NCBI GenBank assembly: GCA_963774955.1
Contig: CAVZGV010000004.1
Span: 296,716-360,715 of the forward strand
Origin: Candidatus Falkowbacteria bacterium
Lineage (GTDB): Bacteria; Patescibacteriota; Patescibacteriia; CAIXNZ01
Length of the DNA: 64,000 nt
Direction of reading: 5' to 3'
Below the pieces are notes generated by a model. The model saw nothing but the letters and a program-made list of their open reading frames with translations. It searched no databases and was not told the origin of the DNA. The position numbers and the translations under genes were made by a program. Shown one piece after another: positions 28,494 to 51,414 of this stretch (positions are counted from its first letter, which is position 1; every line of letters starts with the position of its first letter).

Positions 28494-28769
28494 ATGACTC
28501 TCAAATCCGCGCATTTTTCTCAAAAACTGACAATCACCTTGTTAGTTTTTTTATTTATCTTTTCCCAGCCTGGCATTTTGCTGGCGGCCGAAGAAGCTGT
28601 AAATGACAATACCGTTTCGGTTAACACGACCGAATCCCCGGCCGAACCGGCCACTGACACTTCAGCTCAGCCGGCTGTAACTCCTGAAACACCGACAGCC
28701 CAGACGGTTCAGATCAGGCTACGGCTGATGCGGTCAAAGCTGACACGGAAACGCCAGATCAAGGCATGA
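28494..28769 (+). CDS. signal-peptide-bearing N-terminal segment, probably the true N-terminus of the giant RHS protein separated by a frameshift
   Basis: Signal peptide MTLKSAHFSQKLTITLLVFLFIFSQPGILLAAEE plus a PT-rich linker. The last 20 residues (RLRLMRSKLTRKRQIKA) look out of frame. The giant ORF frame upstream of its ATG reads linker-like sequence (DGSDQATADAVKADTETPDQG). Confidence 0.4.
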   Translation: MTLKSAHFSQKLTITLLVFLFIFSQPGILLAAEEAVNDNTVSVNTTESPAEPATDTSAQPAVTPETPTAQTVQIRLRLMRSKLTRKRQIKA

Positions 28770-31700
28770 ATACTTTAGACAGTTCCGGAGGAGAGGTGTA
28801 CGGAGACGTCTCCAATATTACTGATTCGCCCAAAACCAATAAATCAAATTTGGAAGTTGATCAGAACTCTGGTGCCTTATTATATAAATACCCGATACAA
28901 GTTCCTCCGGGCAGAAACGGCCTGCAACCTGACTTGGCTTTGAGTTACAATAGTCAGGATTTAAAATACGACAGTGAATTCGGTTATGGCTGGGGTATAA
29001 CTATTCCATACATTGAAAGGTTGCTTAAAAAAGGTATTGATAAGGCGTATACTGAAAATTATTTTACATCGTCTTTGAGCGGAGAATTGGAAGATGTTAG
29101 TTTGAGCGATGGGCATCACGGCACTTATGGCGCTAAAGTTGATAGCGGAGATTTTCTTAAATACGAGTTTAATACCAGTAACTATTGGTTGGTAACCGAT
29201 AAAAAGGGGACTGTGTACAAATTTGGATACAATGCTTCAGCTCGCCAGAATGATCCTAGTGACAGCTCACATGTGTTTAAATGGATGTTGGAGGAAGTCC
29301 GCGATACCAATAATAATTACATTAAATATGAGTATTATAAAGATAATGGTCAGATTTATCCCTCGGCGATAAAATATACCGGCTATAATACGACTGACGG
29401 AATTTTCGAAATAGATTTTTTAAGAGAAAGCCGGAGCAATGACTACGTTTCTTATAAAGAGGGTTTTGAAGCAACAACTGGTTATAGGATTTATGAAATC
29501 CAGGCCAAAGTTAGTGGGACATGGGCTAGAAAATATGAGCTGGACTATACGGCATCAAGTGAAAATGATTGGCAGGAATTATTAACTTCTATAACTGAAA
29601 GTGGCAATGACGGTAGTCAGACAATCAGTTTACCAGTTACTACGTTTACTTACCAAACGAATGGAGGATACGTTTTTTATACTCAGGATCAGAATGTTGA
29701 TTTTCCAACTAAAGCATATAATGCGATGTGGAACGGTCATGCCAGCAACGGCACTTTTTCAACTGATGCAAATGGCGACGGCCTATCCGATATTGTCCAA
29801 TATAAAGTAGGTTATACAAACTGCCAATATTCTTTAAGCAGAAGTTTTTTAAGTAACGGGAACGGTTGGGATGAATCAAGTGAATGGACTTCATTTAATT
29901 TAGCTAAAGAACAATATTGCCATAGTAATGGAGATTTTAGCGTATATTTAAGACCTGCGATTTTTATCGATATAAACGGAGATGGTTTATCTGATTTTGT
30001 GAAAAGTGGAATTAGATTAAATAACTCTGCTAATCAAGACTATGTAAGTATCAGCTGGAATATTCCCTTATCATTAACCGATGCCAATGGCTATGGAATT
30101 CAAGACTACGTTCATCTTGGAGATTTTAACGGCGACGGACTAGTTGATTATTTTGCTAAATATTACATAAATGGAAATTGGCATATGGATATTATGCCCA
30201 ATTTAGGTAATGGCTGGTATGTTGATAATACTTGGAGTTTCCCAAGTTATCTGAGCGATGGCATAATTTATAATCACGGCATTAAATTCGCGGATATTAA
30301 CGGTGATAGCCTGGACGATATATTGGTATCGCAGAATGATGACCAATACGGGACAATAAGAAAAGTATATTTAAACACCGGTGCCAAAAGTTGGGCGGAA
30401 ACAACTGATTTTACAATTTCTAGCAGCCTTGTTTTTTTTATCAGGCATACAAATCCCGATCAAAATATGGTTATGCCTATAGAATTTAATGATCTAAACA
30501 AGGACGGTTTAACTGATGTTATTTATGACGAGAGTGTTTATATAAATGACGGTTCGACCTTTATTGATACTACTGATATTACCTCTTTTTATAGCCCTTA
30601 TTTTGGTCAAATCTCCGGCCGAAATTTCATGGAAATAAACGGAGATGGTATGCCCGATTATTCCATATCCTCCAAGTCAGGCATTGATGAATCATATTGG
30701 GTCGGTTCCCAATATGAAAATTCAGAAGATTTAAGTAGTATTTCTAAATCGGTGTATATTAATCAAAAAAAGCCTTCGGGATTATTGATAGGTGTTGAAA
30801 ATTCCAAAGGCGGGTCAATGGAAGTTACTTACAAAGGTTCGGGTGAATACAAAGGTAGTAATGATAATTTACTAAATCCGCATTTGCCGGTGATTGTCCA
30901 GACCGTCTCCCAGATCACCTACAATGACGGCCTAAATAATTCATGGTCGGAAAATTACCAGTACGCCAACGGTGAATACTATTTTTCTGACTACCTGAAT
31001 CGCAAGCTGGCGGGATTTGGTTTGGTGACAAAGACTGATGCGGGAGGGAATGTTACGAAGTCATATTTTCATCAGGGGAATACTACTGACTCAAGTCATG
31101 GCGAATATTCTGATGATGTTTCCAAGATCGGCAAGGTTTATCGCGCAGAAGTTTATGATGACTCGGATAACTTATATTCAAAGTCCATTAATAAATGGGA
31201 AAATTATGATTTGGGGAATGACAGGGATTTTGTGAAGTTAACGCAAACGATTAGTTTTAGTTATGACGGTAATACAAGTCATAAGGACAAGGCTGAAACT
31301 TACACTTATGACAATGCGACCGGCAATTTGACGCAGAAAGTTACCTGGGGCGAGGTGACGGGTTCGGATAACGGCACGTACACGGACACCGGAACGGATA
31401 AATTTACGACTGATATAGACTATGCGGCCACTACGGGTAGCGCAGTCATTGGCTTGCCAAGCCAGGAGACGACTGAAGATCAAAGCAGTAATAAAGTTAA
31501 GGAAACCAAGTATTATTATGACAGTCTGACTTTGGGCAATGTGGATAAAGGCAATCTGACCAAACAGGAAATGTGGAAATCAGGCACCAGTTATATTGAT
31601 GTTGAAAAGACATATAATTCTTACGGCATAGTTACCCAGGAAAAGGATCCGCGCGATAAGACAACGGATTATACTTATGATTCATATAATTTGTATCCGG

Positions 31701-34700
31701 CGACTGTTACTAATGCGTTAGACCTGGATACTGATTATGAATATGATTATTCTTCAGGCAAGCCGACCCAGGTGACTGATCCTAATGGGCGGGTGTTTCA
31801 GACAGTTTATGATGCCCTGGACAGGGTAAAACAGGAAAAACAGCCGGATTTAACCACGCCGAGTACTTTGGTGGTTAAAACTGAATATACATACACTGAT
31901 AATACCGTACCGAGCAAAGTTCAGCAGACAAATAATCTGGATTCTTCAACGAGTTTTGATATTTATACTTATCTTGACGGTTTTGGACGAAAAATTCAGG
32001 AAAGAAAAGAGGCCGAGGCTTCAAATACATTTAGTGTCAAAGATTTTGCTTACAATGACCTTGGCCTGGTGGACAGGGAATCTTTGCCGTACTTTTCGAC
32101 CGGCACATCCAGAACAACCGCCACCACTGATAATTCGCTTTATACCAGTTACACTTATGATCCTTTGCAAAGAGTCGCCACCTCAACTAATGCAGTTGGC
32201 ACCACCACGAATACTTATGACGACTGGAAACTGACCATTACTGACGCGGAAAGCAATGTTAAGGATTTGTACAAAGATGCTTATGATAATTTAGTCCAGG
32301 TTGATGAACATAATGACTCAAGTACCTATACCACGACTTACGGGTATAATGGTCTGGGAAATTTATTAAATATTACTGATTCTCAGGATAATGTCAGGAA
32401 TTTTACTTATGACGGACTTGGCCGCAGATTAACAGCCGAGGATTTGCATGATCCTGAAGACGAATATTTTGGCGAGTGGACGTATGGTTATGATGATTCA
32501 GGTAATTTAACTTCCAGAACTGACCCCAATTCCCAGACAGTAAACTGGACTTATGATGATTTGAACCGCGTTTTGACTGAGGATTACACGGGTCAAAGCG
32601 GAACCGAAGTGGCTTATGTTTATGACACTGGAACGGACGGAATTGGCAGGCTTTATACGGCCACAACACCTGACGTGGTTACGACTCATACTTACAATCC
32701 GCTGGGCGGAGTGAAAACTGAAAATAAATACATTGATTCAACCAATTATCTGACCGAGTTTGCTTATGACCGCCAGGGAAACCAGACCTTGATTACTTAT
32801 CCGAGCGAAGATGAAGTTAAATACGAATACAACACGGCCGGGCTTTTGGAAAAGATTCAAAATAAACCAGCCGGTGAACAGTCTTTTACAGACCTGGTCA
32901 GCGATTATGATTATTCGCCTTTGGAGCAGGTAACTTATCAGGAAGACGCCAATGGCGTTAAAACCTTTAATACTTATGACGAGCAAAAATTGTACCGCCT
33001 AAAAGAGAAAATCACAGCCAGTCCGGATGAAGGTGATTATGGTGAAGGGATGTTTAATATGGCAATGGCTGTCCCGAGCGCAGGTGTCATTCAGAGCGGT
33101 AGCGAAGAATCCATTGCCCCCGCCACAACCGGAATCCTTTCAGCGCTCGGCGTTACTGCGGATTCGCCGTTGACGAGCGCAGGTGTCATTCAGAGCGATA
33201 GCGTGGAATCCATTGCCCCCGCCACAACCGGAATCCTTTCAGCGCTCGGCGTTACTGCGGATTCTCCCTTAACCCCGCTCATAAACAGTGTAACCATGGC
33301 TACGGAAAGTTTAGGTCTGGTTAAGGATCCTCAAATAGAACCGTTACCGGTTAAGCCTGGGGAAAAAGTCCAGCGGGATTTCCTCGGCCGGCCGGTTGAT
33401 TATTCCAATTATCCCAAAGATACCACGGTTTACATTAAAACAGATCCAAACGCCAAATCTCAGGAATTGCCTAAAGAAGCGATTGAAGCCTATGATAAAG
33501 CGGCTGCCAAGCCTCAACCCGAGCCTGAATTAAAGACTTTATTGCCCCAGGAGGCTGTTGATTATTACAACAGTCAGGCTCAAACATCACCAGGCGACGG
33601 CTCCATGATGCTTTTGGAAAGCGTTAATCCACCTAATCCGTCAACGAATTTACAAACTGAAAATTTATGGAAAAGCGACAATATAATCTACAATTCCGGT
33701 TTTGAAGACGGATTTGCATACTGGCAGTGGCAAAATAAGCAGGGCGATACGCATACGGAAGATTGCACAGTTTCCTACAGCGGTTCCTGTTCGGAAAAAG
33801 TTACCATTGCCACTTCAGGTAATTTTTGGGAAACCCAAGTTTACCAGGTTTTAAGGCTGGATGAGAATATTAATTACAAACTGCGTTTTAAGGCCAAAGC
33901 TTCAACAGCCATCACATTTAGCCTGGAAGCCGTGCAAAACCACACGCCATTCAATGACCTGGGCTTGTGGAAAGGGGATTTAAGCATTGGCACTGACTGG
34001 CAGGAATACGAATATACTTTTACTGCTTTGGCAAGCGATCAGGACGCCAGAGTAACCTTTTATCTGGGCGCCAATGCGGCAGATTACTGGTTTGACGATA
34101 TTGAACTCATACCCGATGCTCTCAATATGCTGAAAAATACCAGTTTTGAAAACAATCTTGATAATTGGGAATTTTATGATTACAACAGCACCAGCGAAAA
34201 TACCCGAGACTGCGCAGAAGCGTCTGACGGCGACTGCAATAACAAGGTGGAAAATATGCAGAGCGGTGAATGGTGGCAGGTTTCCCTTAACCAGCCGATT
34301 TCAGTGGTGGCTGACCAGACCTATATTCTGACGTTTTACGCTCATTCCAATTACGATACTCGAATAGCCAAGGTGGCAATCGCCAAGAATTACAGTCCCT
34401 GGACTGATTTGACCGCCATTGCCGAATTTCACACCAACTGGAACGGCGGTTTTGCCAAATACCAGATTGAGCTGACCCCGAACGCCACTGAAAGCAACGC
34501 CCGCCTGATCTTTTATCTGGGCGATGATCAGGGCTGGATTAAGCTGGACAGTCTGCGCTTATGGCCTCAGCAGGCGACTAAGGTTTCAGATTCAACCCCT
34601 GAATTCTCCGCGATTTATGATGATCCGGATTCCGGGGATTATGCAACAGATTACCAGATACAATTAATCAAATATGATGGGAACTGGTCGAACCCCATCT

Positions 34701-36454
34701 GGGATAGTGGGAAGACATCGTTTAATTCTAACGTTTTAGAAGGTAACAGGACTGAAGACATTATTTATGACGGCGACGCCTTGCCTTTGGACGGCATGAA
34801 ATACAAGTGGCGCATCAAGTTATGGGACGAGTCGGATAATGAGGGTGTCTGGACTAATGGCGAGGACTTTTTCATTATGAATGGCAAGCGGATTCAGGAT
34901 TTAAGTTACACCTACGATGATGTGGGCAATATTACGCAGATTATTGACGAGTCTGAAACCAACACGAAGAAAGCCGCCAACTACGCTTATGATGATTTAT
35001 ATCGCTTAACATTGGCCACAATTACGGATTCCGCGACTGATGAGGATTACACTCAGACGTACACTTATGATTCATTAGGTAATTTTACAGACAGGTCAGA
35101 TGTCGGGGATTATGATTATGACGGCAATACCGGGACAAGTTATGCCAATCCGCATGCGGTTACCAGCGTACAGAATGACGCAGTAGCCATAAACTATGAT
35201 CATAATGGTAATTTAACCAGTGAGATTTTAAGCCAGTATCAATGGACGATCTTTGAGGCGGAGTGGGATTACAATAACCGGATGATAAGTTCAGGAGGCT
35301 GGTCAGCAGAAACCGTGTACAGCTATGATCACAGCGGGCAGAGGATTGTGAAGGACACCGGCGATGAATATAGCGGTATTACTACTATTTATGCGAACAA
35401 GTACTACAACGAGCGGACGAACAAGGAAACGTCGGAATTGACCAAGACATTGAATATTTATGACAATAAAGGGAATTTAGTTGCTACGGGCGAAGAAGTC
35501 GGAGAAACTAGTAATATTTATTACGTAAATGGTGACCATTTGGGAAGTTCCAGCGTTATGACGACTGATACAGGGGACATGGAACAGGTGGTTGACTATT
35601 TTCCGTATGGAAATATGCGGTTTAATGAGCAGAGAGTACAAAATGAAAGCTATGATCAGAAGGAAAAATTTTCCGGAAAAATTTTCGATCAGGATGCAGC
35701 TGGGTTGTCATATTTCGGAACCAGGTACTATTCTGGTGAAGCAGGGAAGTTTATTAGTGAGGATCCTGTGTTTTTAGCAGTTGGTGATAATGAAAATATA
35801 AAAAGGTTAGCAAGAATTGAATTACAGCAGTATTTATCCAATCCGCAGATAATGAATAGTTATTCATATTCCTATAACAATCCTTTGATTTATAAGGATG
35901 GTGATGGTAACTTTGCATTTTTGATCCCCATTGCTGCTTATGCAGTCGCTACTGCACCAGTATGGGTACCAGCAGTAATTACCTGGTCTGCCGCCACTAC
36001 TTTAGCCATTAGCACACCACTTGTCGGGGGACAAATATATTCATATGCTAAAGGAGATAATGCAACTGGGAATCAGATGGGTGATGTCGCGATGGGGGTT
36101 ATGGGGATTGAGGCAGGTGTAGCTGGCGGTATTATGTCCATAGATAAAATGTTGAGTTCATCTTATAATAAGCCGGCAAATAGAACAAAATCTAACAGTA
36201 AATCAGCCCCCCTTTTTTCAAGTCATGCACAAATGCGTATGGAGCAAAGAGGAATTTCGATAGATCAAGTTAAGAATGTAATGGAAAATAATAAACCATT
36301 TAATTATTATCACGAAAATAATTGGAAAACTGGGTATTATGATCAATCTAGTAAAGTATTCGTCGCACAAGCAAATGAAAGTGGGCAGGTCATAACCGTA
36401 ATAAACGATGTAAGTCCGCAATATATTAGTAATTTACAATCACTAAAACCATGA
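28766..36454 (+). CDS. giant TcB/TcC-like RHS-repeat polymorphic toxin (2562 aa): SpvB N-domain, FG-GAP repeats, RHS/YD repeats, 2 CBM4/9-like modules, RHS core, DUF4258-like C-terminal toxin
   Basis: SpvB-like LYKYPIQVPPGRNGLQPDLALSYNSQ...GYGWG. Six DxNGDGxxD FG-GAP repeats. Many YD repeats. NSGFEDG...W CBM-like modules. RHS core YYVNGDHLGSSSVMTTD...DYFPYGN...RYYSGEAGKFISEDP. C-terminal HAQMRMEQRGISIDQVKNV... resembles DUF4258. Confidence 0.85.
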   Translation: MNTLDSSGGEVYGDVSNITDSPKTNKSNLEVDQNSGALLYKYPIQVPPGRNGLQPDLALSYNSQDLKYDSEFGYGWGITIPYIERLLKKGIDKAYTENYFTSSLSGELEDVSLSDGHHGTYGAKVDSGDFLKYEFNTSNYWLVTDKKGTVYKFGYNASARQNDPSDSSHVFKWMLEEVRDTNNNYIKYEYYKDNGQIYPSAIKYTGYNTTDGIFEIDFLRESRSNDYVSYKEGFEATTGYRIYEIQAKVSGTWARKYELDYTASSENDWQELLTSITESGNDGSQTISLPVTTFTYQTNGGYVFYTQDQNVDFPTKAYNAMWNGHASNGTFSTDANGDGLSDIVQYKVGYTNCQYSLSRSFLSNGNGWDESSEWTSFNLAKEQYCHSNGDFSVYLRPAIFIDINGDGLSDFVKSGIRLNNSANQDYVSISWNIPLSLTDANGYGIQDYVHLGDFNGDGLVDYFAKYYINGNWHMDIMPNLGNGWYVDNTWSFPSYLSDGIIYNHGIKFADINGDSLDDILVSQNDDQYGTIRKVYLNTGAKSWAETTDFTISSSLVFFIRHTNPDQNMVMPIEFNDLNKDGLTDVIYDESVYINDGSTFIDTTDITSFYSPYFGQISGRNFMEINGDGMPDYSISSKSGIDESYWVGSQYENSEDLSSISKSVYINQKKPSGLLIGVENSKGGSMEVTYKGSGEYKGSNDNLLNPHLPVIVQTVSQITYNDGLNNSWSENYQYANGEYYFSDYLNRKLAGFGLVTKTDAGGNVTKSYFHQGNTTDSSHGEYSDDVSKIGKVYRAEVYDDSDNLYSKSINKWENYDLGNDRDFVKLTQTISFSYDGNTSHKDKAETYTYDNATGNLTQKVTWGEVTGSDNGTYTDTGTDKFTTDIDYAATTGSAVIGLPSQETTEDQSSNKVKETKYYYDSLTLGNVDKGNLTKQEMWKSGTSYIDVEKTYNSYGIVTQEKDPRDKTTDYTYDSYNLYPATVTNALDLDTDYEYDYSSGKPTQVTDPNGRVFQTVYDALDRVKQEKQPDLTTPSTLVVKTEYTYTDNTVPSKVQQTNNLDSSTSFDIYTYLDGFGRKIQERKEAEASNTFSVKDFAYNDLGLVDRESLPYFSTGTSRTTATTDNSLYTSYTYDPLQRVATSTNAVGTTTNTYDDWKLTITDAESNVKDLYKDAYDNLVQVDEHNDSSTYTTTYGYNGLGNLLNITDSQDNVRNFTYDGLGRRLTAEDLHDPEDEYFGEWTYGYDDSGNLTSRTDPNSQTVNWTYDDLNRVLTEDYTGQSGTEVAYVYDTGTDGIGRLYTATTPDVVTTHTYNPLGGVKTENKYIDSTNYLTEFAYDRQGNQTLITYPSEDEVKYEYNTAGLLEKIQNKPAGEQSFTDLVSDYDYSPLEQVTYQEDANGVKTFNTYDEQKLYRLKEKITASPDEGDYGEGMFNMAMAVPSAGVIQSGSEESIAPATTGILSALGVTADSPLTSAGVIQSDSVESIAPATTGILSALGVTADSPLTPLINSVTMATESLGLVKDPQIEPLPVKPGEKVQRDFLGRPVDYSNYPKDTTVYIKTDPNAKSQELPKEAIEAYDKAAAKPQPEPELKTLLPQEAVDYYNSQAQTSPGDGSMMLLESVNPPNPSTNLQTENLWKSDNIIYNSGFEDGFAYWQWQNKQGDTHTEDCTVSYSGSCSEKVTIATSGNFWETQVYQVLRLDENINYKLRFKAKASTAITFSLEAVQNHTPFNDLGLWKGDLSIGTDWQEYEYTFTALASDQDARVTFYLGANAADYWFDDIELIPDALNMLKNTSFENNLDNWEFYDYNSTSENTRDCAEASDGDCNNKVENMQSGEWWQVSLNQPISVVADQTYILTFYAHSNYDTRIAKVAIAKNYSPWTDLTAIAEFHTNWNGGFAKYQIELTPNATESNARLIFYLGDDQGWIKLDSLRLWPQQATKVSDSTPEFSAIYDDPDSGDYATDYQIQLIKYDGNWSNPIWDSGKTSFNSNVLEGNRTEDIIYDGDALPLDGMKYKWRIKLWDESDNEGVWTNGEDFFIMNGKRIQDLSYTYDDVGNITQIIDESETNTKKAANYAYDDLYRLTLATITDSATDEDYTQTYTYDSLGNFTDRSDVGDYDYDGNTGTSYANPHAVTSVQNDAVAINYDHNGNLTSEILSQYQWTIFEAEWDYNNRMISSGGWSAETVYSYDHSGQRIVKDTGDEYSGITTIYANKYYNERTNKETSELTKTLNIYDNKGNLVATGEEVGETSNIYYVNGDHLGSSSVMTTDTGDMEQVVDYFPYGNMRFNEQRVQNESYDQKEKFSGKIFDQDAAGLSYFGTRYYSGEAGKFISEDPVFLAVGDNENIKRLARIELQQYLSNPQIMNSYSYSYNNPLIYKDGDGNFAFLIPIAAYAVATAPVWVPAVITWSAATTLAISTPLVGGQIYSYAKGDNATGNQMGDVAMGVMGIEAGVAGGIMSIDKMLSSSYNKPANRTKSNSKSAPLFSSHAQMRMEQRGISIDQVKNVMENNKPFNYYHENNWKTGYYDQSSKVFVAQANESGQVITVINDVSPQYISNLQSLKP

Positions 36455-36681
36455 AAATCACTTATGACAAATCTATAGATGCGGTATACATATATTTAAT
36501 TCCTAATCAAAGAATCCACCCGGGATGGTCTAAAAAAACTTATCCTTGTGACCCCAAAGAAGTAAATGGCATGATTAATTTAGACTTTGATAATAAAGGT
36601 AGGCTGGGTGGGATTGAAATAATTGGAGCTAGTCAAAAATTACCAAAAGAAATTATCGATTCAGCTGAAGTTATTGGTTAG
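36451..36681 (+). CDS. DUF2283-like immunity/antitoxin protein (cognate to the DUF4258 toxin tip)
   Basis: MKITYDKSIDAVYIYL...INLDFDNKGRLGGIEIIGAS matches the DUF2283 pattern. ATGA overlap with the toxin stop. Confidence 0.6.
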   Translation: MKITYDKSIDAVYIYLIPNQRIHPGWSKKTYPCDPKEVNGMINLDFDNKGRLGGIEIIGASQKLPKEIIDSAEVIG

Positions 36682-36789
36682 TCCACAGTAATCGGTTTAG
36701 TTTTCATAAATACTGATAAATAGAGTTGTTCAAAATAGAATGAGTAAATAGCTAAGTTCTTTTAAAACTTAACAATTTAATTAATTTAA

Positions 36790-38605: not shown

Positions 38606-38632
38606 ACTTTAAAAATTTGATATTTTAAATAT

Positions 38633-39592
38633 ATGAAATTTATTGTGTTAAATATATATACCTTAATTGATATTAGAAAGGAGGAAATCGCTAAAAAGTT
38701 TTACAAATTAATTGTTAAATATGGTTATACGCCTGACAAAATTGGCATTGTTGAACCTTTGAAGAAGACATTTAATGTAAGTAATTTGGCTGATACTATA
38801 AATATGTGGATGCATACAGATTCTGAAAAATATCATACCTTTAGTGGTACTGTTATACTATTAAAGAAAAAACCTCGGATTTTATTCATGGCTCATTGGA
38901 TTAAGGGAAAGAATGCGGAATTCAATTGGGTATCAATAGATATTTCTGAAAGATTTTTAGCTAATGGCACGGAACTGAATAAATTTATTAAATTTATTAA
39001 TGAAATGTATAAATTATTCAATCCAATATTAATATATAGTAGCCATGATGATGTTAAAGAACAACAAATTAGAATAGTTACTGTTGATGAACGTGGTTGG
39101 GAGAGCTCAAGAATAACAGGTACGATAATTGAATGTATCCCTGGTATTTTCTGGTTGAATTATTTCGGGCCAGTTTTTGTGGATTTTGTAGGCCGCGATA
39201 AATTTAAAAATGCACCTTGCTATAAAAAGGAAGAAATGCCCGATGGGGGATATATGCTAATGACGGCAGAGGATCCATTTAATCCAAATGACCAAATGAA
39301 AAGAAAAGCGGAACAGGATTTAAAGGAATATTTTGGGTTAGAGTATTTTGGCAACCCAAAACAGCCTGGCAAAAAATGCAAAATGCCCGATTTTGACTTT
39401 AGTGATCTTAGAGGCGATTATAAAGAATTAACTCCTGAAGAAGAAAAGAACCAAATTTTAGAGCATTTTAAGAAAACAGGGCTTGAATTGGTTGAAGAGG
39501 AAGGCGATGGCACTTTAGTCTTTAGGAGTAAAAGAGGCAAACACGATATCGTAAAATTTAAAAAAGGAAGTATTGATTATTTTAAAAAGTAA
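38633..39592 (+). CDS. hypothetical protein, putative immunity protein for the preceding orphan toxin
   Basis: Position immediately 3' of the toxin module. 319 aa, no recognisable domain. Confidence 0.4.
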   Translation: MKFIVLNIYTLIDIRKEEIAKKFYKLIVKYGYTPDKIGIVEPLKKTFNVSNLADTINMWMHTDSEKYHTFSGTVILLKKKPRILFMAHWIKGKNAEFNWVSIDISERFLANGTELNKFIKFINEMYKLFNPILIYSSHDDVKEQQIRIVTVDERGWESSRITGTIIECIPGIFWLNYFGPVFVDFVGRDKFKNAPCYKKEEMPDGGYMLMTAEDPFNPNDQMKRKAEQDLKEYFGLEYFGNPKQPGKKCKMPDFDFSDLRGDYKELTPEEEKNQILEHFKKTGLELVEEEGDGTLVFRSKRGKHDIVKFKKGSIDYFKK

Positions 39593-39598
39593 CAAAAT

Positions 39599-42500: not shown

Positions 42501-42955
42501 TAGATGAGGTTACTATTCTGTCGCATAGTGATGCGAATAATATTTACTTGAATGGAGATAAAGAAAAACTTACCACAACACCAAATATGTTTAATGTAGA
42601 TCCCAAAACCCTAGGAACCTCAATTGATTCATTAAGTAAAAAAGATATCGGTCAGATAAATTTATATACATGCGAAGGGGGTAATATAAGCCACGCCACG
42701 AATTTAGCCAAAGCCTTTGCTACTTCACAGCAAACTACTGTGATGGGTTTTGATGGTAGATTATCTTTTGTTCCATTTTTAGGAAGTCCCATGTTTTCAC
42801 TTCGAGGGCAATTAAAACATTACAATGAATACGGCAGAGCTCCGTTAGGTTGGGTTACTTACAGTAAAAATGGAAGCTATAGTGTCGGAAATGATTCACA
42901 GCGTCCGCCTTATATTTATAAGTGGATAGGTTATTTTGCTGGTTTTAATAATTAA
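39599..42955 (+). pseudogene. second secreted RHS-like toxin gene (signal peptide + CBM-like modules + RHS core + distinct C-terminal toxin), disrupted by indels around 41400-41620
   Basis: ORFs 39599..41428 and 41624..42955 are colinear with giant protein residues about 1530-2400. Region 41400-41620 has scrambled/indel versions of sequence that is intact at 46908-46990. Canonical NPMIYLDPTGL precedes the toxin tip. Confidence 0.6.
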
Positions 42956-42967
42956 TTAGATATATAT

Positions 42968-43522
42968 ATGGATAATTTAGTCATAAATTTTATATTTTTA
43001 TCAGTGCCTTTATTTGTTTCTGTTTTTATTGTCCTACTAATCTTTACTTTAAGGACATTGAGACAGAAACGAAACATTTATCAAGGTAATATGAAAATGA
43101 AAATTGGGTTGCTTGTTATTATTATAATAATACTAGTTATCCCTTTCCTATATAGTTATTTTGACGGTTTATCGTTAAGGCTGGAATATCTAGGCATGAA
43201 TAAACTAGGTACGGAAAGTCCTAATATGAATTATGGTGATTGGGGTTTTATAAGATCCGAAGAAGAACAAAAAAATATAGAAAATAAATTAGATATTAAT
43301 TTGACCTACGATATAAATTACTCGAAGGAAATGGAACTTGTAAGTTACGGTAGAAAAATTTATAAAATAAATTATAGTTTGTTCTCCAGGTGGTTCAATA
43401 ATAATTTGCCGGTTACAATATTTGCCGACAATAAGAACGAATCGGATAGTATTTTTATTTATAAGGTTGATGATAACTTCTCACCTAGTGAACAGGGCAG
43501 TAGTTATCGAATTAACAGATAG
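42968..43522 (+). CDS. hypothetical membrane-anchored protein (immunity candidate)
   Basis: N-terminal TM segments; AT-rich; located after the toxin tip. Confidence 0.35.
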   Translation: MDNLVINFIFLSVPLFVSVFIVLLIFTLRTLRQKRNIYQGNMKMKIGLLVIIIIILVIPFLYSYFDGLSLRLEYLGMNKLGTESPNMNYGDWGFIRSEEEQKNIENKLDINLTYDINYSKEMELVSYGRKIYKINYSLFSRWFNNNLPVTIFADNKNESDSIFIYKVDDNFSPSEQGSSYRINR

Positions 43523-43569
43523 AGCTTTATTACTCGGTTGTATCAAATAATAATTGTATATATAAAATT

Positions 43570-43920
43570 ATGTTCGACAAAACAAAACAATTCTTCGTTA
43601 ATTTAAAAAGGCCTTATCGTTATTTAGTCTTTATTTTGAGTTATTTCCTGTTGAATCTAATATTATTGATTTTGGCAATTTATATTAAGAGCTTATCCTC
43701 ATCTTTATATGAGATTGTATTCATCTTTTACTTTTTCGCATTATTGTTGATTGTTGCAGCTGTTTTGGGATGGGGATATGTTTTAATGTCGTTATCCAAG
43801 GAAATAAAAGATATGACATTCTTTGCATTAACTATAATCTTAGCGGTTATTTTTTTCATAATTTGGCCTATGATTTTATATTACTTATCGGTTTATGGCT
43901 GGGATGTGTTAAGTGGATAG
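43570..43920 (+). CDS. small multi-TM membrane protein (immunity candidate)
   Basis: Roughly four predicted TM helices in 116 aa. Confidence 0.4.
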   Translation: MFDKTKQFFVNLKRPYRYLVFILSYFLLNLILLILAIYIKSLSSSLYEIVFIFYFFALLLIVAAVLGWGYVLMSLSKEIKDMTFFALTIILAVIFFIIWPMILYYLSVYGWDVLSG

Positions 43921-43953
43921 AAATATTTTAAGAATAATTAATAAAAAAATGAG

Positions 43954-44352
43954 ATGAGGTTTTTTATGTCCGGAGAAGTAAGTGGCGAAGCTCACGAAAA
44001 ATTCAGAGTATTAATGCTCGAAATTGAAAAACAAATTAAAAGTTTGATGAATATTAATGATTATGGGGATGCAGTTTCTGAGATTGCCATAATACCTACT
44101 ATATTTTCCGCTGAATTTTTAACAGCTTTGCCCTATAAAGAACGCAAGCGATTTTCACCTAAAACGAAAGTAGGTGAGTTTAGATTAAGGATAGATTACG
44201 ATAAATTTGTTAAGGCAAACGAAGATAGTAAACGTAGATTAATAGTGCAAAATATTATTGATTCAATCAGGATTCTAAAAACAAAAGTTAAAAAAGGATT
44301 TGATGGCGACAAATTGGAAAAAGATATTAGAGAATTATTCAAAATAGAATAG
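43954..44352 (+). CDS. hypothetical protein (immunity candidate)
   Basis: 132 aa, SD-like GAGATGAGG upstream. No domain recognised. Confidence 0.4.
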   Translation: MRFFMSGEVSGEAHEKFRVLMLEIEKQIKSLMNINDYGDAVSEIAIIPTIFSAEFLTALPYKERKRFSPKTKVGEFRLRIDYDKFVKANEDSKRRLIVQNIIDSIRILKTKVKKGFDGDKLEKDIRELFKIE

Positions 44353-44394
44353 ACGGATAATTCGGTTCTTTTAAAATTAAATAAATTAATTAAT

Positions 44395-46220
44395 ATTACC
44401 AAGTTCAAATAATAAAGTATGACGGGGCGTGGTCGAACCCTGTTTGGGACTCTGGCAAAACAAGTTTTACAAGTTCAGTTTTAGAAGGCGATAGGACGGA
44501 GGATATTGCGTATGACGGCGATGCCTTGCCTTTGGACGGTATGAAGTACAACTGGAGGATAAAGTTATGGGACGAATCTAATAATGAAGGCGCCTGGACT
44601 AATGGCGAAGATTTTTTCATCATGAATGGCAAGAGGATTCAGGACTTGTCTTATTCGTATGACAACGTTGGCAACATTGCCCAGATAATTGATCAATCGG
44701 AGACAAATACCAGAAAAACAGCCGAATACGAATATGACGAATTATATCGCCTAATTTCAGCGACAATTACGGATTCCGCCACAGAAGAGGATTACACCCA
44801 GACCTATACTTATGATTCTTTGGGTAACACTACTTATCGTTCTGATGTAGGCGATTATGATTATGAGGGCAATACAGGTTCAAATTACGCCAATCCGCAT
44901 GCGGTAACTAGCGTACAGAATGACGCAGTGGTAATAAACTATGACCAAAATGGAAATCTGACCGACGAAGTTTTAAGCCAGTATCAATGGACTATTTTTG
45001 AGGCGGGGTGGGATTATAATAACCGAATGGCGACATCAGGAGGTTGGTCGGATTCTGCTGTTTATAAATATGACCATAGCGGACAACGAATATGGCAGGA
45101 GACCGGAGGCCAGTATTATGGCGTAAAAACAATTTACCCGAATAAATACTATAATGAAAGGACGGATAAGTTTCTGGCTGAGACTGTTGACACCTTGCAA
45201 ATATATGATAATAAAGGGCAGTTAATAGCTACCGGGGAGGAAAACGGAGAAACTTCAAATATTTACTTTGTCCATAATGATCATCTAGGTTCTTCCAGTG
45301 TAATGACAAAAAGTGACGGGAATGTTGAGCAGGTAATCGATTACTACCCGTTTGGTGATATCAGATTCAACGAAAGAAGTGATCCTGATAATAATTCCTT
45401 TGACGAGCGCGTCAAGCATTCTAACCATTTGTACGATGACAATACGTCATTAACATACATGGGGGCTAGGTATTACACAGGAGCCGGGGGAAAATTTGCG
45501 AGTCAAGATGAGGCATATTTAGCTGTTGGTAGTAGTCAATTAAGGGATCTAACTAATAGAAGTTTAAGCGAATATTTAGGCGATCCTCAGAATTTAAATT
45601 CTTATACTTACGCACGAAACAATCCTATAATAAATATTGACCCCACTGGCAATTTTTGGTGGTATGGATTTTATAATTGGAGCGGATATAATGGTTTCAG
45701 TGGTTTCATGATGAAGGCGGGGGAAGTTTTAGGCGGTCATAATCGAGCGATGAATGTAATTCAGCAGAATCAAACTATAATAAATGAAACAAGCGATAAA
45801 TATGGGGTTAATCCCAATTTAACCAACGCAATTATTTATGAAGAGCAGTCTCATCTAACTCCAGATGAAGTTGTGGGAAGAGAGCAACTATTGCCTGATG
45901 TAGGGAGTGGTGGCGTGGGTGTAATGCAAGTAAGTGCAAAAGTCGGTGAAGAATTTGGGTATAGTAAAAGTGATTTAGCTCGCGATCCGGTTAAGAATAT
46001 AAATGCGGGAATTCAGAATTTATCTAAAGAGCAGAATGTATCTAATTCAGCAGCAGTTACAGCAAGTAAATATAATAATAGCCAAGCTACTAATATTACA
46101 AATTATGGATTAAGAGTAGAAGCTCAATTAAACAATCCCAGTTATAACCGCAATATTATAACTGATGTTAAGAATTCGGTTTCAGCGATTAAATCACTGT
46201 ATAATTTAATAAGTAAATAA
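44395..46220 (+). CDS. orphan RHS-core cassette with lytic transglycosylase (SLT)-like C-terminal toxin; longest ATG-ORF is 44526..46220
   Basis: Homology to the giant gene starts at ccaagttcaaataataaagtatgacgggg. The tail after NPIINIDPTGN contains IYEEQSHL...GSGGVGVMQVS, an SLT-like catalytic-Glu context. Confidence 0.6.
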
Positions 46221-46221
46221 T

Positions 46222-46563
46222 ATGACTAATAAAAATTCGAAGTTATTTATTATTACAATAGTTACGTTAATTCTTTGGATATTGCCTTTCGTTATTTATT
46301 TCTTTGAGAAAAGTATGGGCTTTTTATCTGATCAGAAAAGTTGGTATGAATTAGGAATAAATCATGGGCCTTGGAGAGGGAGGATAGAAAGTATAATTTT
46401 ATTTTATCCACTTATAGTAGTGGCAATTACTACTCTAATTCTTGCCACACTTCAGATAGTAAGGAAAAATTTTAAGATTTTTGTTTTACTCTTCCTTTTG
46501 TTTATTGTTCAGCTATTATTAATTTTTATCCAAGTATACTTTTTAATTTGGATGATTGATTAA
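46222..46563 (+). CDS. small 3-TM membrane protein (immunity candidate for the SLT-like toxin)
   Basis: ATG overlaps the toxin stop (TAATATG). Confidence 0.4.
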   Translation: MTNKNSKLFIITIVTLILWILPFVIYFFEKSMGFLSDQKSWYELGINHGPWRGRIESIILFYPLIVVAITTLILATLQIVRKNFKIFVLLFLLFIVQLLLIFIQVYFLIWMID

Positions 46564-46569
46564 ATTAAG

Positions 46570-47655
46570 ATGTTTATAAATACCAAATATTACCAAGTTC
46601 AAATAATAAAGTATGACGGGGCCTGGTCGAACCCCGTCTGGGACTCTGGCAAAACAAGTTTTACAAGTTCAGTTTTAGAAGGCGATAGGACGGAGGATAT
46701 TGCGTATGACGGCGATGCCTTGCCTTTGGACGGTATGAAGTACAACTGGAGGATAAAGTTATGGGACGAATCTAATAATGAAGGCGCCTGGACTAATGGC
46801 GAAGATTTTTTCATCATGAATGGCAAGAGGATTCAGGACTTGTCTTATTCGTATGACAACGTTGGCAACATTGCCCAGATAATTGATCAATCGGAGACAA
46901 ATACCAGAAAAACCGCTGAATACGAATATGACGAATTATATCGCCTAACGTCCGCCACGATTACGGACAGCGCCACTGAAGAGGATTACACCCAGACATA
47001 TACTTATGATTCATTGGGCAACACTACTTATCGTTCTGATGTAGGCGATTATGATTACGAGGGCAATACAGGTTCAAATTATGCCAATCCGCATGCGGTT
47101 ACCAGCGTACAGAATGACGCAGTGGTCATAAATTATGACCAAAATGGAAATCTGACCGACGAAGTTTTAAGCCAGTATCAATGGACTATTTTTGAGGCGG
47201 GGTGGGATTATAATAATAGGATGATAACAAGCGGAGGCTGGTCTGCAGATACCGTGTACAGCTATGATTACAGCGGGCAGAGAGTCTTTATGGAAACCGG
47301 TGATGAGTATTCGGGCAAGGTCAATATTTATGCTAATAAGTACTATAGTGAAACAACTGACAAGGAAGCATCGGAACTTACCAAGACTCTGTACGTCTAT
47401 GATAATAAAGGCAATTTAGCGGCCACCGGGGAAGAAAAAGGAGAAACCAGCAATCTTTACTTTGTCAGTGGAGATCATTTAAGTTCGTCCAGTGTCATGA
47501 CAACGGATCAAGGCGAAATAGAGGAAGTGATTGATTATTATCCTTACGGCAATTTGAGGTTTAATGAAAGAAGCGATGCGGAGAATGGGTCCTTTGATGA
47601 AAAGAAAAAGTTTTTGGAAAGATTAATTATTCTTAATATATTAATTAATAATTAA
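46570..47655 (+). pseudogene. truncated orphan RHS-core cassette (no toxin tip)
   Basis: Colinear with the other cassettes but ends ...NERSDAENGSFDEKKKF then junk. Confidence 0.55.
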
Positions 47656-47667
47656 CTTTTCAAAAAT

Positions 47668-48285
47668 ATGAAATTTTATTACATTTTTGAGCAAGAAGAA
47701 GATTTGAAATATGTTCCTTTAGTGAGTAATAAATATACAGTTTACGGGTTGAAAGATTATGAACTTGAGGAAGGCAAATTTATTAAGAGATGGGATAACC
47801 GAAATGTGTTGTATTATGACAAAGAAGGTATTTGCGAGGATTTTTTATCAAACACGCTATTTGCTCCGGTTATTTCCCAAAGAATTAAAGATATTCTTGA
47901 AAAAGAGCTAGGGATAAAAGGTATTCAATTTTTTCCTATATCTATTAAGCACACCAAGAGTGATAAGGTTGTGTATGGTTATTATGTTATGAACGTTACA
48001 AATTTAGTTAGAGATGCCCTTGATAGGGAAAAATCTATATTTAGTGTTACGGAGTTACCAAAACTGAATATCAGATCAGAAACTGTGATGTTTTATACGT
48101 TAGATGTAGATAGGTTAAGGGGACAAGACGTTTTTCGTGTGGGAGATGGTAGATTATTTGTATCTGAAAGAGTAAAGGATGCATTTGATAAATCTGGTGT
48201 GACGGGCATAGCTTATGGAGGGACTTGGCTATCCGGTGATAAAAATAGACCTTGGGAGAAAAAGAAGTTAAAATATAACTTATGA
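47668..48285 (+). CDS. hypothetical protein (possible orphan immunity gene)
   Basis: 205 aa; no recognisable domain. Confidence 0.35.
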   Translation: MKFYYIFEQEEDLKYVPLVSNKYTVYGLKDYELEEGKFIKRWDNRNVLYYDKEGICEDFLSNTLFAPVISQRIKDILEKELGIKGIQFFPISIKHTKSDKVVYGYYVMNVTNLVRDALDREKSIFSVTELPKLNIRSETVMFYTLDVDRLRGQDVFRVGDGRLFVSERVKDAFDKSGVTGIAYGGTWLSGDKNRPWEKKKLKYNL

Positions 48286-48289
48286 GATA

Positions 48290-48485
48290 TTGTTTTATAC
48301 AATTAATCAAATATGATGGGACCTGGTCGAACCCCATCTGGGACTCTGGCAAAACAAGTTTTACAAGTTCAGTTTTAGAAGGCAACAGGACTGAAGACAT
48401 TATTAAAAATAGGAAAACCCCCGGCTTTAGCCGGGGAGACTTGAAAAGCTTTGAGCGTTCCTTTGGGGCGCGTATATTTGCTTAA
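48290..48485 (+). pseudogene. remnant of a further RHS cassette junction (about 110 bp of homology) ending in a terminator hairpin
   Basis: caattaatcaaatatgatgggacctggtcgaacccc...gttttagaaggcaacaggactgaagacattatt, then cccccggctttagccgggg. Confidence 0.5.
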
Positions 48486-48537
48486 ATTAAAAAAATCGGC
48501 TATAATATTGATATAATACAAAATTTAACCTAAATAT

Positions 48538-48822
48538 ATGTCTAAAATAAACTTAGAATTTAAATTACCCGTGTCTTTTTTGCGTGAAGGAAATAAGTAC
48601 ATCGCTTATACTCCTGCGCTAGATTTATCTACTTCCGGCAAAACTTATAAAGAAACAAAAAAAAGATTTGAAGAAATTTCGCAGATTTTTTTTGAGGAAC
48701 TAATAAAAGAGGGTACTGTAGATAGCGTTTTGACTGATTTAGGCTGGAAAAGGGTTCGGTCCAGATGGAATCCGCCGGTTTTAATTTCCCAAGAATCCCA
48801 GCTAATTAAAATGGCTGCCTAG
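48538..48822 (+). CDS. hicB: HicB-like antitoxin (UPF0150/DUF1902-like)
   Basis: KYIAYTPALDLSTSGKTYKETKKRFEE pattern; adjacent to HicA. Confidence 0.5.
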   Translation: MSKINLEFKLPVSFLREGNKYIAYTPALDLSTSGKTYKETKKRFEEISQIFFEELIKEGTVDSVLTDLGWKRVRSRWNPPVLISQESQLIKMAA

Positions 48823-48827
48823 TTTAT

Positions 48828-49058
48828 ATGCCTCATTTAACTCCTATCGCCTGGAAGAAATTTGAAAAATTTTTATTATTTGTAGGCTGTAATTTTACAA
48901 GGGAAAAGGGCGACCATCGGGTATATTGGCGCGAAGGACTGAAAAGACCTGTAGTTATTCCGCGAAGCGGGGATTTACCAATTTTTATCATAAGAAATAA
49001 TTTAAGAGTATTGGGAATTAGTCCAGATGAATACATTGAAATATTGAAACAGGTATAA
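48828..49058 (+). CDS. hicA: HicA-like mRNA interferase toxin (YcfA family)
   Basis: REKGDHRVYWREGLKRPVVIPRSGDLPIFIIRNNLRVLGISPDEY matches the GSH...P.h PF07927 pattern. Confidence 0.6.
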   Translation: MPHLTPIAWKKFEKFLLFVGCNFTREKGDHRVYWREGLKRPVVIPRSGDLPIFIIRNNLRVLGISPDEYIEILKQV

Positions 49059-49145
49059 GAAAAACCGCTCATGATATGGGGCGGTTTTTTTGTTCGAAAT
49101 ATAGTATAATTTCTTCAGGCTTGATGAGCGAAAGGAAATTATATC

Positions 49146-49544
49146 ATGCATGATTATCAAAGCTTATCTCATTCAAAATGGGACTGCAAATATCATTTGG
49201 TTTTTATTCCCCAGGGTCGGCGAAAAATACTTTTCGGCAAAATAAGAAAGTACTTGGGTAATATTTTCCACGAACTGGCAAAGTATAAAAGTTGCACAAT
49301 TTTAGAAGGACATTTTATGTTGGATCATGTTCATATGTGCATTCAGATACCGCCCAAATTTTCCGTGGCTTCAATCGTGGGCTATCTCAAGGGTAAAAGC
49401 GCCATCATGATCGCCAGGCAGTTTGGCGGCAAAGAAAGAAATTTTAACGGCGAACATTTTTGGGCGCGCGGTTATGCTGTTTCAACCGTGGGATTTGAAG
49501 TTAATCGGATTAGGCAATATATTAGGGAGCAGGATTTGCATTAA
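49146..49544 (+). CDS. tnpA: IS200/IS605-family TnpA (Y1 transposase)
   Basis: YHLVFIPQGRRKIL, HVHMCIQIPPK (HuH) and GYAVSTVG (catalytic Y); 132 aa. Confidence 0.8.
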   Translation: MHDYQSLSHSKWDCKYHLVFIPQGRRKILFGKIRKYLGNIFHELAKYKSCTILEGHFMLDHVHMCIQIPPKFSVASIVGYLKGKSAIMIARQFGGKERNFNGEHFWARGYAVSTVGFEVNRIRQYIREQDLH

Positions 49545-49628
49545 CTAATTATAAATGATACTCATCAGGCATATAAAAGAAAAAGCGTTTAGATATAAAG
49601 GTGAAAAATTACTTTTTAATATAGATAT

Positions 49629-49666
49629 AAAAAACACCTCTCGGAAACGGGGGGCGTTTTTTTTTA
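49629..49666 (+). terminator. rho-independent terminator (copy 2 of the duplicated rpoC-terminator sequence)
   Basis: aaaaaacacctctcggaaacggggggcgttttttttt; 34/35 identical to 28326-28361. Confidence 0.65.
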
Positions 49667-51413: not shown

Positions 51414-51414
51414 C

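Follow-up and report, generated by a model that had tools for sequence, protein, structure and literature searches.

Why would a cell-attached bacterium with a very small genome give approximately 21 kb to what looks like one weapon system, and how did this DNA come to lie directly behind rpoC? Bacteria of the Candidate Phyla Radiation (CPR), or Patescibacteria, account for a large part of the diversity of bacteria, and how they fight or feed is poorly understood. The locus considered here is located within a 64,000-nucleotide stretch of Candidatus Falkowbacteria bacterium (assembly GCA_963774955.1, contig CAVZGV010000004.1, positions 296,716 to 360,715), hereafter the window, in which rpoBC are followed by a giant RHS gene, by further copies of its 3´ end (modules) and by a series of small genes. 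We interpret it, with a probability of roughly 0.85, as a horizontally acquired RHS-type polymorphic-toxin island of the ‘TcdB/TcaC’ class. Coordinates are those of the window; related loci and contigs carry L-numbers (L001 etc.) and database homologues of the giant protein P-numbers (P0001 etc.).

The limits of the island were determined by comparison with related genomes. When one genome per species was scanned with the RpoC C-terminus, the nearest relatives were ‘Candidatus Parcubacteria bacterium LacPavin_0920_SED3_MAG_40_21’ (L001; 94% amino acid identity) and a second Lac Pavin Parcubacteria metagenome-assembled genome (L002; 77%), the remaining matches all being Patescibacteria with at most 60% identity. 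Together with a GC content of about 0.38, this identifies the organism as a Candidatus Parcubacteria (CPR) bacterium and confirms the CPR-like, low-GC genome proposed in a preliminary description of the locus. In blastn alignments, window 20835-28360 was collinear with L001 3833-11352 and window 49750-51664 with L001 11451-13388, and the interval between these blocks amounted to approximately 98 bp in L001 vs. 21.4 kb in the window. The rpoC terminator hairpin, present as a single copy in L001, flanks the island as a direct repeat with an exact 25-nt core (AAAAAACACCTCTCGGAAACGGGGG, at 28327-28351 and 49629-49653; 0 expected by chance). The island plus one copy of this repeat corresponds to window 28363-49666 (21.3 kb). 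Relative to the nearest genome, this block is an insertion at the rpoC terminator, as previously proposed, and it ends at the very coordinate given then. L002 also lacks an RHS gene between rpoC and the same downstream genes, and in none of 18 rpoC-linked loci was a giant-gene relative, a module, HicBA or IS200 found downstream of rpoC. L001 and the window offer a clean natural before/after pair for the insertion. Despite the flanking direct repeats, no integrase or recombinase open reading frame (ORF) was found in the island, so that integrase-mediated insertion is unsupported. There was no Rfam match at the island and no relative of the shared module in a scan of viral contigs.

The body of the giant gene encodes a product 100% identical to the database protein P0001. 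SpvB was detected at residues 35-200 (Pfam, E 2.7e-17), followed by RHS repeats (RHS_repeat PF05593, E 1.7e-22; TIGR01643, E 9e-8), Ig_Rha78A_N at residues 1938-2031, Rhs_assc_core TIGR03696 at residues 2278-2381 (E 1.4e-9) and DUF4258 at residues 2484-2546 (E 5.5e-7 with the whole protein, E 5.9e-8 with the tip alone), while DUF6443 was sub-threshold. FG-GAP_3 reached E 1.1e-5 and 26.4 bits against a Pfam cut-off of 26.9; the β-propeller is backed instead by the TcB fold match and by repeated DxNGDGxxD motifs. Among the families that had been anticipated, SpvB, RHS_repeat, TIGR03696, CBM_4_9, DUF4258, DUF2283 and SLT were all matched on the island, and FG-GAP_3 fell just under its cut-off. 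Sequences in the PDB matched by the giant protein were YenB, YenC2, RhsA and SpvB. More precisely, residues 36-194 matched YenB (TcB), residues 2033-2350 matched positions 351-678 of YenC2 (TcC; E 2.5e-12), and residues 1677-1805 matched carbohydrate-binding modules (CBMs) of the CBM4 type, namely those of laminarinase 16A and of a GH10 xylanase.

The fold predictions pointed in the same direction. An AlphaFold (AF2) model of residues 1-1200, for which 45 homologues were used, showed a predicted local distance difference test (pLDDT) value of 82.7 and a predicted template-modelling score (pTM) of 0.85. Its best Foldseek matches were TcdB1, TcdB2-TccC3 and YenB (E 1e-48 to 6e-52, TM 0.69-0.77), whereas Rhs proteins of the type VI secretion system (T6SS) and teneurins gave a TM of only ~0.2. 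In the model of residues 1600-2562, the two CBMs, the Ig-like domain and the RHS sheet were well formed (pLDDT 60-95; CBM/Ig domains 80-95), and the best fold matches were TcC chains and tandem CBM22. Both sequence and fold matches thus agree with the TcB-like front and TcC-like rear described earlier, and the giant protein is a natural fusion of the TcB-TcC type, at whose seam lie a linker, two CBMs and an Ig-like domain. Its first ~1470 residues fold like TcB, and its last ~530 consist of an RHS cap resembling TcC, of an RHS core in which the putative Asp/Gly motifs for autoproteolysis are conserved, and of a toxin tip. The upstream SxDP and the NNPxxxxDxxG[NL] motifs are kept in modules M0-M3, the sequences diverge directly after the latter, and the Asp and Gly of DxxG were near-invariant in 46-sequence family alignments. 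At this demarcation motif the main gene reads KDGDGN, as opposed to the DPxGL type (PxxxxDPxGL), and cleavage there is predicted from the motif.

Upstream of the body, and in another frame, lies an ORF that reads as a typical Sec leader, containing LLVFLFIFSQPGILLAAEEAV. The same leader is fused to the body in the homologues P0002, P0003, P0004, P0006 and P0007, and tblastn placed the frame change in the window between 28686 and 28709; it may be either a true mutation or an assembly error. The giant gene had been called intact, which holds for its 7.7-kb open body but not for the signal peptide, which is out of frame in the assembly.

The giant gene is followed by partial copies of itself. Repeat finding, blastn and motif search agreed that the last ~1 kb of the scaffold is present in six in-register copies (M0 to M5). 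According to the first two methods, the copies start at 34636, 36772, 41071, 44381, 46575 and 48275, with a shared length of approximately 1.0-1.14 kb and 74-88% identity. The junction motif ATHAARTATGAYGGRR occurred six times, once per module, vs. 0.15 times expected. The copies begin within the Ig-like domain (QLIKYDGxWSNPxWDSGK) and comprise the TcC-like cap and core up to NNPxxxxDxxG[NL]. TIGR03696 scored above its cut-off in M0, M1, M2 and M3 (38-54 bits vs. 32.5) and was absent from the truncated M4. In M1 and M3 the reading frame is open throughout, with no 5´ ATG. The modules behind the main gene are promoterless, start-less copies of the end of the scaffold, each with a different tip and with one or more small genes of its own after it. 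Together with the Pfam and NCBIfam matches, the six modules speak for the RHS polymorphic-toxin locus with an orphan toxin/immunity array that had been postulated, and the count of at least five further modules restarting at one junction was confirmed in its details: two full orphans, one module in a broken gene, one truncated and one remnant of ~125 bp. As each module has its own tip and its own downstream gene, the modules are not assembly duplicates, an origin considered previously. Nevertheless, exact repeats of 336 and 275 bp between modules leave the order of the cassettes and the small indels provisional.

Identity between the modules was unevenly distributed. Over the first ~300 bp, M2, M3 and M4 do not differ at all (100% identity). 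A later stretch of ~300 bp is shared by M1 and M2 at 97-100%, with M3 reaching only 50-62% against either, and where the core ends, M0 and M1 agree at 89-97%. The modules are thus mosaics of one another, and the patchwork shows gene conversion between them. Further, 65-70 nt upstream of M1 (36722-36790) resemble the 3´ end of Imm44 plus the linker upstream of M3 (44331-44394), indicating that M1 once followed an Imm44-type gene. Both observations fit the displacement/recombination architecture that had been assigned to the locus. A hairpin at the junction (GACGGGG...CCCCGTC) was considered as a recombination signal and rejected: it is also found in L020 but is absent from L019, L021 and L023, and it also follows from the D-G...P-V codons. 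Near-identical antisense ORFs of 75-80 codons (36781-37023, 41095-41322, 44405-44632 and 46599-46826, minus strand) are a by-product of the repeated coding sequence.

The tips are as diverse as first reported: DUF4258 in the main gene, Tox-REase-7 in M1 (E 5.7e-13), SLT in M3 (E 2.3e-8) and, in M2, a tip with no known family, for which DUF4347 stayed below threshold (E 0.0028). Neither the M2 tip nor the DUF4258 tip yielded anything useful when compared with PDB sequences. DUF4258 is a family of BECR-fold RNases (PMC11980606; bioRxiv 10.64898/2026.08.28.747851), and it overlaps Ntox49. As for the small immunity-like genes said to follow the modules, DUF2283, Imm44 and Imm11 were recognized, but the gene after M1 encodes 319 residues and belongs to no family; the gene that follows P0063, a main gene with a REase-7 tip, encodes 230 residues. 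From its position, the DUF2283 gene is presumed to confer immunity to the DUF4258 tip. Imm44 pairs with URI-nuclease tips (Tox-URI1/2) and Imm11 with AHH-nuclease tips (PMC3482391). Both types of tip are absent from the array, and Imm44 and Imm11 are best explained as immunity genes that outlived their toxins.

M2 forms the rear of a second gene with its own signal peptide and CBM_4_9 domains (Pfam, E 7.6e-29). This gene is interrupted at 41417-41545 by five small insertions (6 nt in total), which directly follow a 336-bp stretch identical to M4 and could reflect either decay or a polishing artefact. A search with its leader (N-terminal 140 residues) among 1.84 billion representative sequences returned one relative only, a 143-residue fragment. 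We had considered the gene as a member of a separate TcC-like subunit family; this was rejected because the representative search revealed no intact short signal peptide-CBM-CBM-Ig-RHS-tip relatives sharing the leader, and we read it as a lineage-specific rearrangement.

Next to these internal features, the relatives of the giant protein were informative. A protein search returned 2121 homologues at E<=1e-10. The best 120 of these all scored >1370 bits, measured 1900-3500 residues and carried SpvB, FG-GAP and RHS, often Ig_Rha78A_N, plus CBM_4_9, LamG or PKD domains and many different tips. Those with named hosts among the best 120 came mostly from Patescibacteria (Ryanbacteria, Doudnabacteria, Paceibacterota, Parcubacteria), the exceptions being a few Acidobacteriota and one Methanoperedens archaeon. 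The homologous loci sit in differing genomic contexts. L019 comprises a main gene and three orphans at ~2-kb spacing, with the junction 72 residues further downstream than in the window, and shorter orphan fragments were present in L020, L021 and L023; a main gene followed by orphans is thus typical of the family in CPR bacteria. Moreover, the orphan tip of M3 corresponds to the expressed tip of P0011, a main gene on a 779-kb CPR contig (L021), with 69% identity vs. 52% over the whole module alignment, and the membrane protein downstream of M3 is conserved at 41% after P0011. The conservation of both tip and immunity gene argues for cassette exchange between genomes. REase-7 and DUF4258 tips also occur on other main genes of the family, the latter on P0109, P0019, P0027 and P0101. 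Cassettes move between genomes as well as within them. RHS loci adjoin genes of the type IV pilus/type II secretion type (T2SSE, T2SSF, PilM, prepilin peptidase, pseudopilins) in L019 (25272-28039), L020 (5850-9926) and L024 (2431-5776), which may be chance or a preferred neighbourhood.

The locus belongs to a known class. The TcdB/TcaC class, with a signal peptide, SpvB, an integrin-like β-propeller, RHS and a variable tip, was defined in 2012 for many phyla by Zhang, Aravind and co-workers (PMC3482391). The island shares with it this order of domains, the downstream immunity gene and the stand-alone tip cassettes, and Tox-REase-7, Imm11 and Imm44 are all in the catalogue of that class, although its 2012 list of hosts has no CPR/Patescibacteria (PMC3482391). 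In contrast to the class, two CBM_4_9 domains and an Ig-like domain break up the RHS shell of the island, and the junction lies inside the Ig-like domain. Similarity to the BC sub-complex of the Tc toxins (YenB/YenC2, PDB 4igl; TcdB2-TccC3, PDB 4o9x and 6h6e) is seen in the TcB superposition of the first 1200 residues, in the alignment of the rear to YenC2 351-678 and in the Asp/Gly motif before a hypervariable tip. Natural tcB-tcC fusions have been mentioned (PMC7861908). Unlike this sub-complex, the giant protein has no TcA nearby, about half a TcC, a CBM/Ig insert at the B/C seam and a Sec leader; and unlike in Tc toxins that target insect cells, the tips of the island come with immunity genes, which points to bacterial targets.

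Enterobacterial Rhs loci of E. coli and Salmonella are said to have been described by Jackson in 2009 and Koskiniemi in 2014 as carrying orphan core-extension/immunity pairs, with tips swapped by recombination over a shared stretch. The arrangement would be much the same as here, with a main gene followed by 5´-truncated copies in which the last part of the core is retained and the tips and immunity genes are different ones. Enterobacterial Rhs proteins are, however, reportedly T6SS cargo with PAAR/VgrG-linked N-termini, whereas the island protein is TcB-like with a Sec leader and the stretch shared in the island is ~1 kb long and begins in an Ig-like domain. In the cdiA-CT/cdiI orphan arrays of contact-dependent inhibition (CDI) and in the MafB cassettes of Neisseria, silent tip/immunity cassettes likewise lie downstream of one expressed gene and share a conserved junction motif. 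There, the scaffold consists of filamentous haemagglutinin repeats or MafB and not of an RHS shell, and the export route is another one.

Searches of the CPR literature returned only passing remarks on such loci. A 2487-residue RHS/YD toxin that contains sugar-binding domains and has an immunity gene beside it is mentioned in one sentence for the saccharibacterium ‘T. rhizospherense’ (PMC6031116); unlike the island protein, it has PA14 and galactose-binding domains, and no orphan array, insertion site or Tc-like fold was described for it (PMC6031116). ‘Rhs family’ genes are listed in passing among transferred genes (PMC10031880). The pairing of a Tc-like N-terminus with this architecture in a CPR genome, put forward as new in the preliminary description, cannot be upheld as such: the class dates from 2012 (PMC3482391), many of the 2121 homologues are from Patescibacteria and the layout recurs on CPR contigs. 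The locus therefore overturns nothing, as its architecture and logic have been known from other phyla since 2012. What it offers is evidence, directly in the sequence, that cassettes are shuffled both inside a genome and from one genome to another, in a protein family that seems common across CPR bacteria by database matches, yet is barely described in papers. A Tc-like cocoon that apparently works without TcA would also be an entry point for the study of toxin delivery by epibionts.

If the island acts as an RHS-type polymorphic-toxin system, the giant protein would be exported by Sec, and its RHS shell would enclose the C-terminal tip, which would be released, like the tips of Tc and Rhs toxins, by a cut after the DxxG motif. 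The CBM/Ig insert, displayed outside the shell, would bind surface glycans of a neighbouring cell, and the tip (an RNase, DNase or cell-wall lytic enzyme) would be delivered into or onto that cell, while the adjacent immunity gene would protect the producer and its sister cells. Homologous recombination over the ~1-kb module could bring an orphan tip with its immunity gene behind the expressed scaffold and thereby change the weapon, and the immunity genes retained would guard against the toxins of neighbours. The HicBA-IS200 unit would be a separate mobile or addiction element that cuts the distal end of the array.

Several observations weigh against this interpretation. As assembled, the giant gene is not intact, and with its signal peptide out of frame the main toxin may lack export, unless the frameshift is an assembly error or is bypassed. 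M4, M5 and the second gene are broken as well, so that part of the island is decaying. No delivery device or TcA-like partner was found in the 64-kb window. The function of the toxins, their expression and the immunity conferred by the island genes are predicted, and the pairing of tips with immunity genes was read from gene order and families. The FG-GAP_3 match lies 0.5 bit below the Pfam cut-off. The model of residues 1600-2562 has low global confidence (pTM 0.43) with the tip unmodelled, and the placement of the CBM/Ig insert outside the shell is a prediction. Finally, the island proteins are on record in one assembly only, on a single 455-kb contig.

The same lesions could indicate a decaying relic, that is, an acquired toxin system that is now inactive and of which only some immunity genes still matter against the toxins of neighbours. 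Besides the signal peptide out of frame, this would account for the five small insertions and the stop codons of the second gene, the truncation of M4 in its core, the 125-bp stub M5, the Imm44 and Imm11 genes without cognate toxins and the array cut by the IS unit. We consider it unlikely, given that a stop-free 7.7-kb frame would hardly last long without selection, that the frames of M1 and M3 continue to the end of the tips and no immunity gene is disrupted, and that the single frameshift and the indel cluster right after the 336-bp exact repeat could be assembly errors. A somewhat better case, still a doubtful one, can be made for toxins aimed mainly at the bacterial host of the CPR cell, for nutrient release or parasitism, with immunity needed only to protect the cell while it makes the toxins. 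CBM and Ig domains are suited to binding a foreign cell surface, an SLT tip would open peptidoglycan, and in L019, L020 and L024 the RHS loci have type IV pilus genes as neighbours. Type IV pili serve host attachment in cultivated CPR bacteria. On the other hand, inside the RHS shell the tip is already kept from harming its producer, and orphan Imm44 and Imm11 genes together with a high diversity of tips are a signature of conflict between kin or near-kin (PMC3482391). The two uses are not exclusive and the present data do not separate them: the leftover immunity genes favour conflict between kin, and attack on the host would be compatible with the CBMs, the SLT tip and the proximity of related loci to pilus genes.

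Two further explanations were considered. That foreign RHS DNA was joined to a CPR contig during assembly or binning, or that one cassette was artificially multiplied, might be suspected from the exact repeats of 336 and 275 bp, from the indel cluster at a repeat border and from the restriction of the island proteins to a single contig; it is highly improbable in view of both flanks being collinear with L001 up to the duplicated host terminator, of the Patescibacteria proteins that are the closest homologues of the giant gene, of the different tip and downstream gene of every module and of the same layout on independent CPR contigs. Even less credible is a true Tc (ABC) toxin against eukaryotic cells, with the gene for its TcA injector at another site of the genome. 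TcB and TcC subunits of insecticidal Tc toxins are indeed the best fold matches, but a TcA-like gene was found neither in the 64-kb window, where there is no other large ORF and no family of the TcA type, nor next to the homologues of L019-L023, the nuclease, RNase and peptidoglycan-lytic tips each come with an immunity gene, pointing to bacterial targets, and the protein carries a Sec leader and surface-binding domains of its own.

A broader and rather speculative idea is that Patescibacteria own a large branch of TcA-independent, Sec-exported B-C cocoons, in which a swappable CBM_4_9/LamG/PKD/Ig insert at the seam picks the target and a ~1-kb module swaps cap, tip and immunity, and that these mobile islands, often beside pilus genes, are a main tool of epibiotic CPR bacteria for attacking hosts or rivals. 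The present island would take up ~2-4% of the genome, assuming a typical CPR genome size of 0.6-1 Mb.

The distal end of the array is formed by a hairpin, a HicB-like gene, hicA, a second hairpin and an IS200-type tnpA. The claim that HicBA and an IS200 transposase close the island was supported for HicA (PF07927, E 3.5e-9, 37.1 bits vs. a cut-off of 27) and for the transposase (Y1_Tnp PF01797, E 2.4e-35; NF033573, E 3.8e-40, 137 bits vs. a cut-off of 55), but these genes belong to a separate unit and the 94-residue ‘HicB’ ORF matched no Pfam or NCBIfam family. We call this ORF HicB-like by its position and its 82% identity to the partner of another HicA; it accompanies HicA in 77 of 80 related loci and stands upstream of hicA. 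Classical hicAB operons have the opposite order, with hicA before hicB. HicA and the 94-residue ORF are 86% and 82% identical, respectively, to a pair that precedes the giant gene of L019 by ~0.8 kb. When metagenomes were scanned with HicA, 80 loci were returned (45 with at least 3 kb of flank), and RHS was present in two of them, the two closest relatives (the L019 contig and L024). A general linkage between HicBA and RHS was rejected on these grounds, the association being lineage-specific. In L024 (Ga0315289_10040468, 1-5941), the order is that of window 48279-49562, i.e., a truncated RHS module, hairpin, HicB-like gene, HicA and IS200 tnpA, followed by type IV pilus genes (a PilB-like ATPase, a PilC-like protein and a pseudopilin) and not by the rpoC/hup flank. 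The RHS module is cut after ~125 bp in the window vs. ~390 bp in L024, yet the following sequence starts at the same place, and its hairpin differs between the two loci by a compensatory change (CCCCCGG/CCGGGG vs. CCCCCAG/CTGGGG). The shared left boundary, marked by this conserved hairpin, lies upstream of hicBA and not directly upstream of tnpA; on the right, similarity between the window and L024 ends just after tnpA, where no conserved hairpin was found. We read window ~48405-49562 as a discrete hairpin-HicBA-IS200 unit cut into the array, outside the toxin system. A Zn-ribbon gene lies downstream of the IS200. The coordinates of all these features are compiled in the table below.

Table. 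Features of the island and its flanks, in window coordinates.
Feature	Position	Strand	Remarks
RpoB	20993-24370		upstream flank
RpoC	24408-28295		upstream flank
Left rpoC terminator hairpin	28324-28362	+	left direct repeat of the island; terminator-like sequence
Promoter-like site ahead of the toxin gene	28430-28458	+	TTTACT-17-TATAAT, 10/12 matches; consensus match alone
Giant gene, 5´ part: Sec-type signal peptide and Pro/Thr-rich linker	28494-28769	+	other frame than body
Giant RHS toxin gene, body (TcB-like/TcC-like fusion)	28766-36454	+	2562 aa; Pfam/NCBIfam, PDB sequence matches
TcB-like part	28868-33175	+	SpvB (aa 35-200), FG-GAP β-propeller (aa ~300-650), first RHS shell segment (to aa ~1470)
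Two tandem 99-nt units (33-aa repeat)	33075-33272	+	perfect register, 94-96% identical; linker from TcB-like part to first CBM
Two CBM_4_9-type domains, then Ig-like (Ig_Rha78A_N) domain	33725-34882	+	PDB sequences, model, paralogous gene 2
Module M0, start	~34650
TcC-like RHS cap and RHS-associated core	34862-35908	+	shared with orphans; YenC2 match, TIGR03696, module alignment
Main-gene toxin tip	35909-36451	+	hydrophobic stretch, then DUF4258 (BECR RNase); Pfam
DUF2283 gene, presumed immunity for DUF4258 tip	36451-36681	+	Pfam E 2.6e-11; ATGA overlap with toxin stop
Orphan module M1	36785-38605	+	Ig fragment, RHS cap and core, Tox-REase-7 tip; no ATG at 5´ end
319-aa ORF, candidate immunity for Tox-REase-7	38633-39592	+	no Pfam/NCBIfam family; position only
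Second gene	39599-42955	+	own signal peptide, 2 x CBM_4_9, Ig, RHS cap/core (M2), tip without known family
Module M2, start	~41080
Two small membrane-protein genes (184 aa, 116 aa), candidate immunity for M2 tip	42968-43920	+	hydrophobic; no family found; role inferred
Imm44 immunity gene	43954-44352	+	Pfam E 2.6e-25; no matching toxin in array
Orphan module M3	44394-46220	+	Ig fragment, RHS cap and core, SLT (lytic transglycosylase) tip
113-aa membrane protein, presumed immunity for SLT tip	46222-46563	+	41% identical to gene directly after P0011 in L021
Module M4	46564-47655	+	stops inside RHS core, no tip
Imm11 immunity gene	47668-48285	+	Pfam E 7.2e-18; toxin probably lost
Module remnant M5	48279-48404	+	~125 bp, cut by HicBA-IS200 unit
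Hairpin-HicBA-IS200 unit	48405-49562	+	separate unit
Hairpin	48418-48437
HicB-like gene	48538-48822
hicA	48828-49058
Hairpin	49063-49092
tnpA (IS200 type)	49146-49544
Right rpoC terminator hairpin	49626-49666	+	right direct repeat of the island
hup, ymdB, rny	53631-56886	-	downstream flank; infB beyond

A GC-rich block lies between the island and hup (window 50200-53500; 0.45-0.63 vs. 0.38 for the genome) and has counterparts in L001 (12200-15100) and L002 (12700-14800); being syntenic there, it is outside the island. It contains a CxxC-rich ORF of 274 codons (50589-51413) that belongs to no family and is 71% identical in L001, followed by ~2.1 kb without a convincing ORF or an Rfam match, in which a 49-nt direct repeat occurs at 51429 and 51867.

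Elsewhere in the window, the region 10335-17719 also has a raised GC content (0.44-0.50). It starts with a fragment of a Mutator-family transposase (10335-11150, minus strand), holds genes for a TrmB-type regulator, an amidohydrolase, DFP/flavoproteins and a class II aldolase domain, and may be another acquired block. Two adjacent ORFs at 61771-62868 (169 and 161 residues) match no Pfam family. At 4256-5420, a protein of the CarS-like CDP-archaeol synthase family (PF01864, E 2.6e-32) adjoins a CDP-alcohol phosphatidyltransferase, in a bacterial genome.

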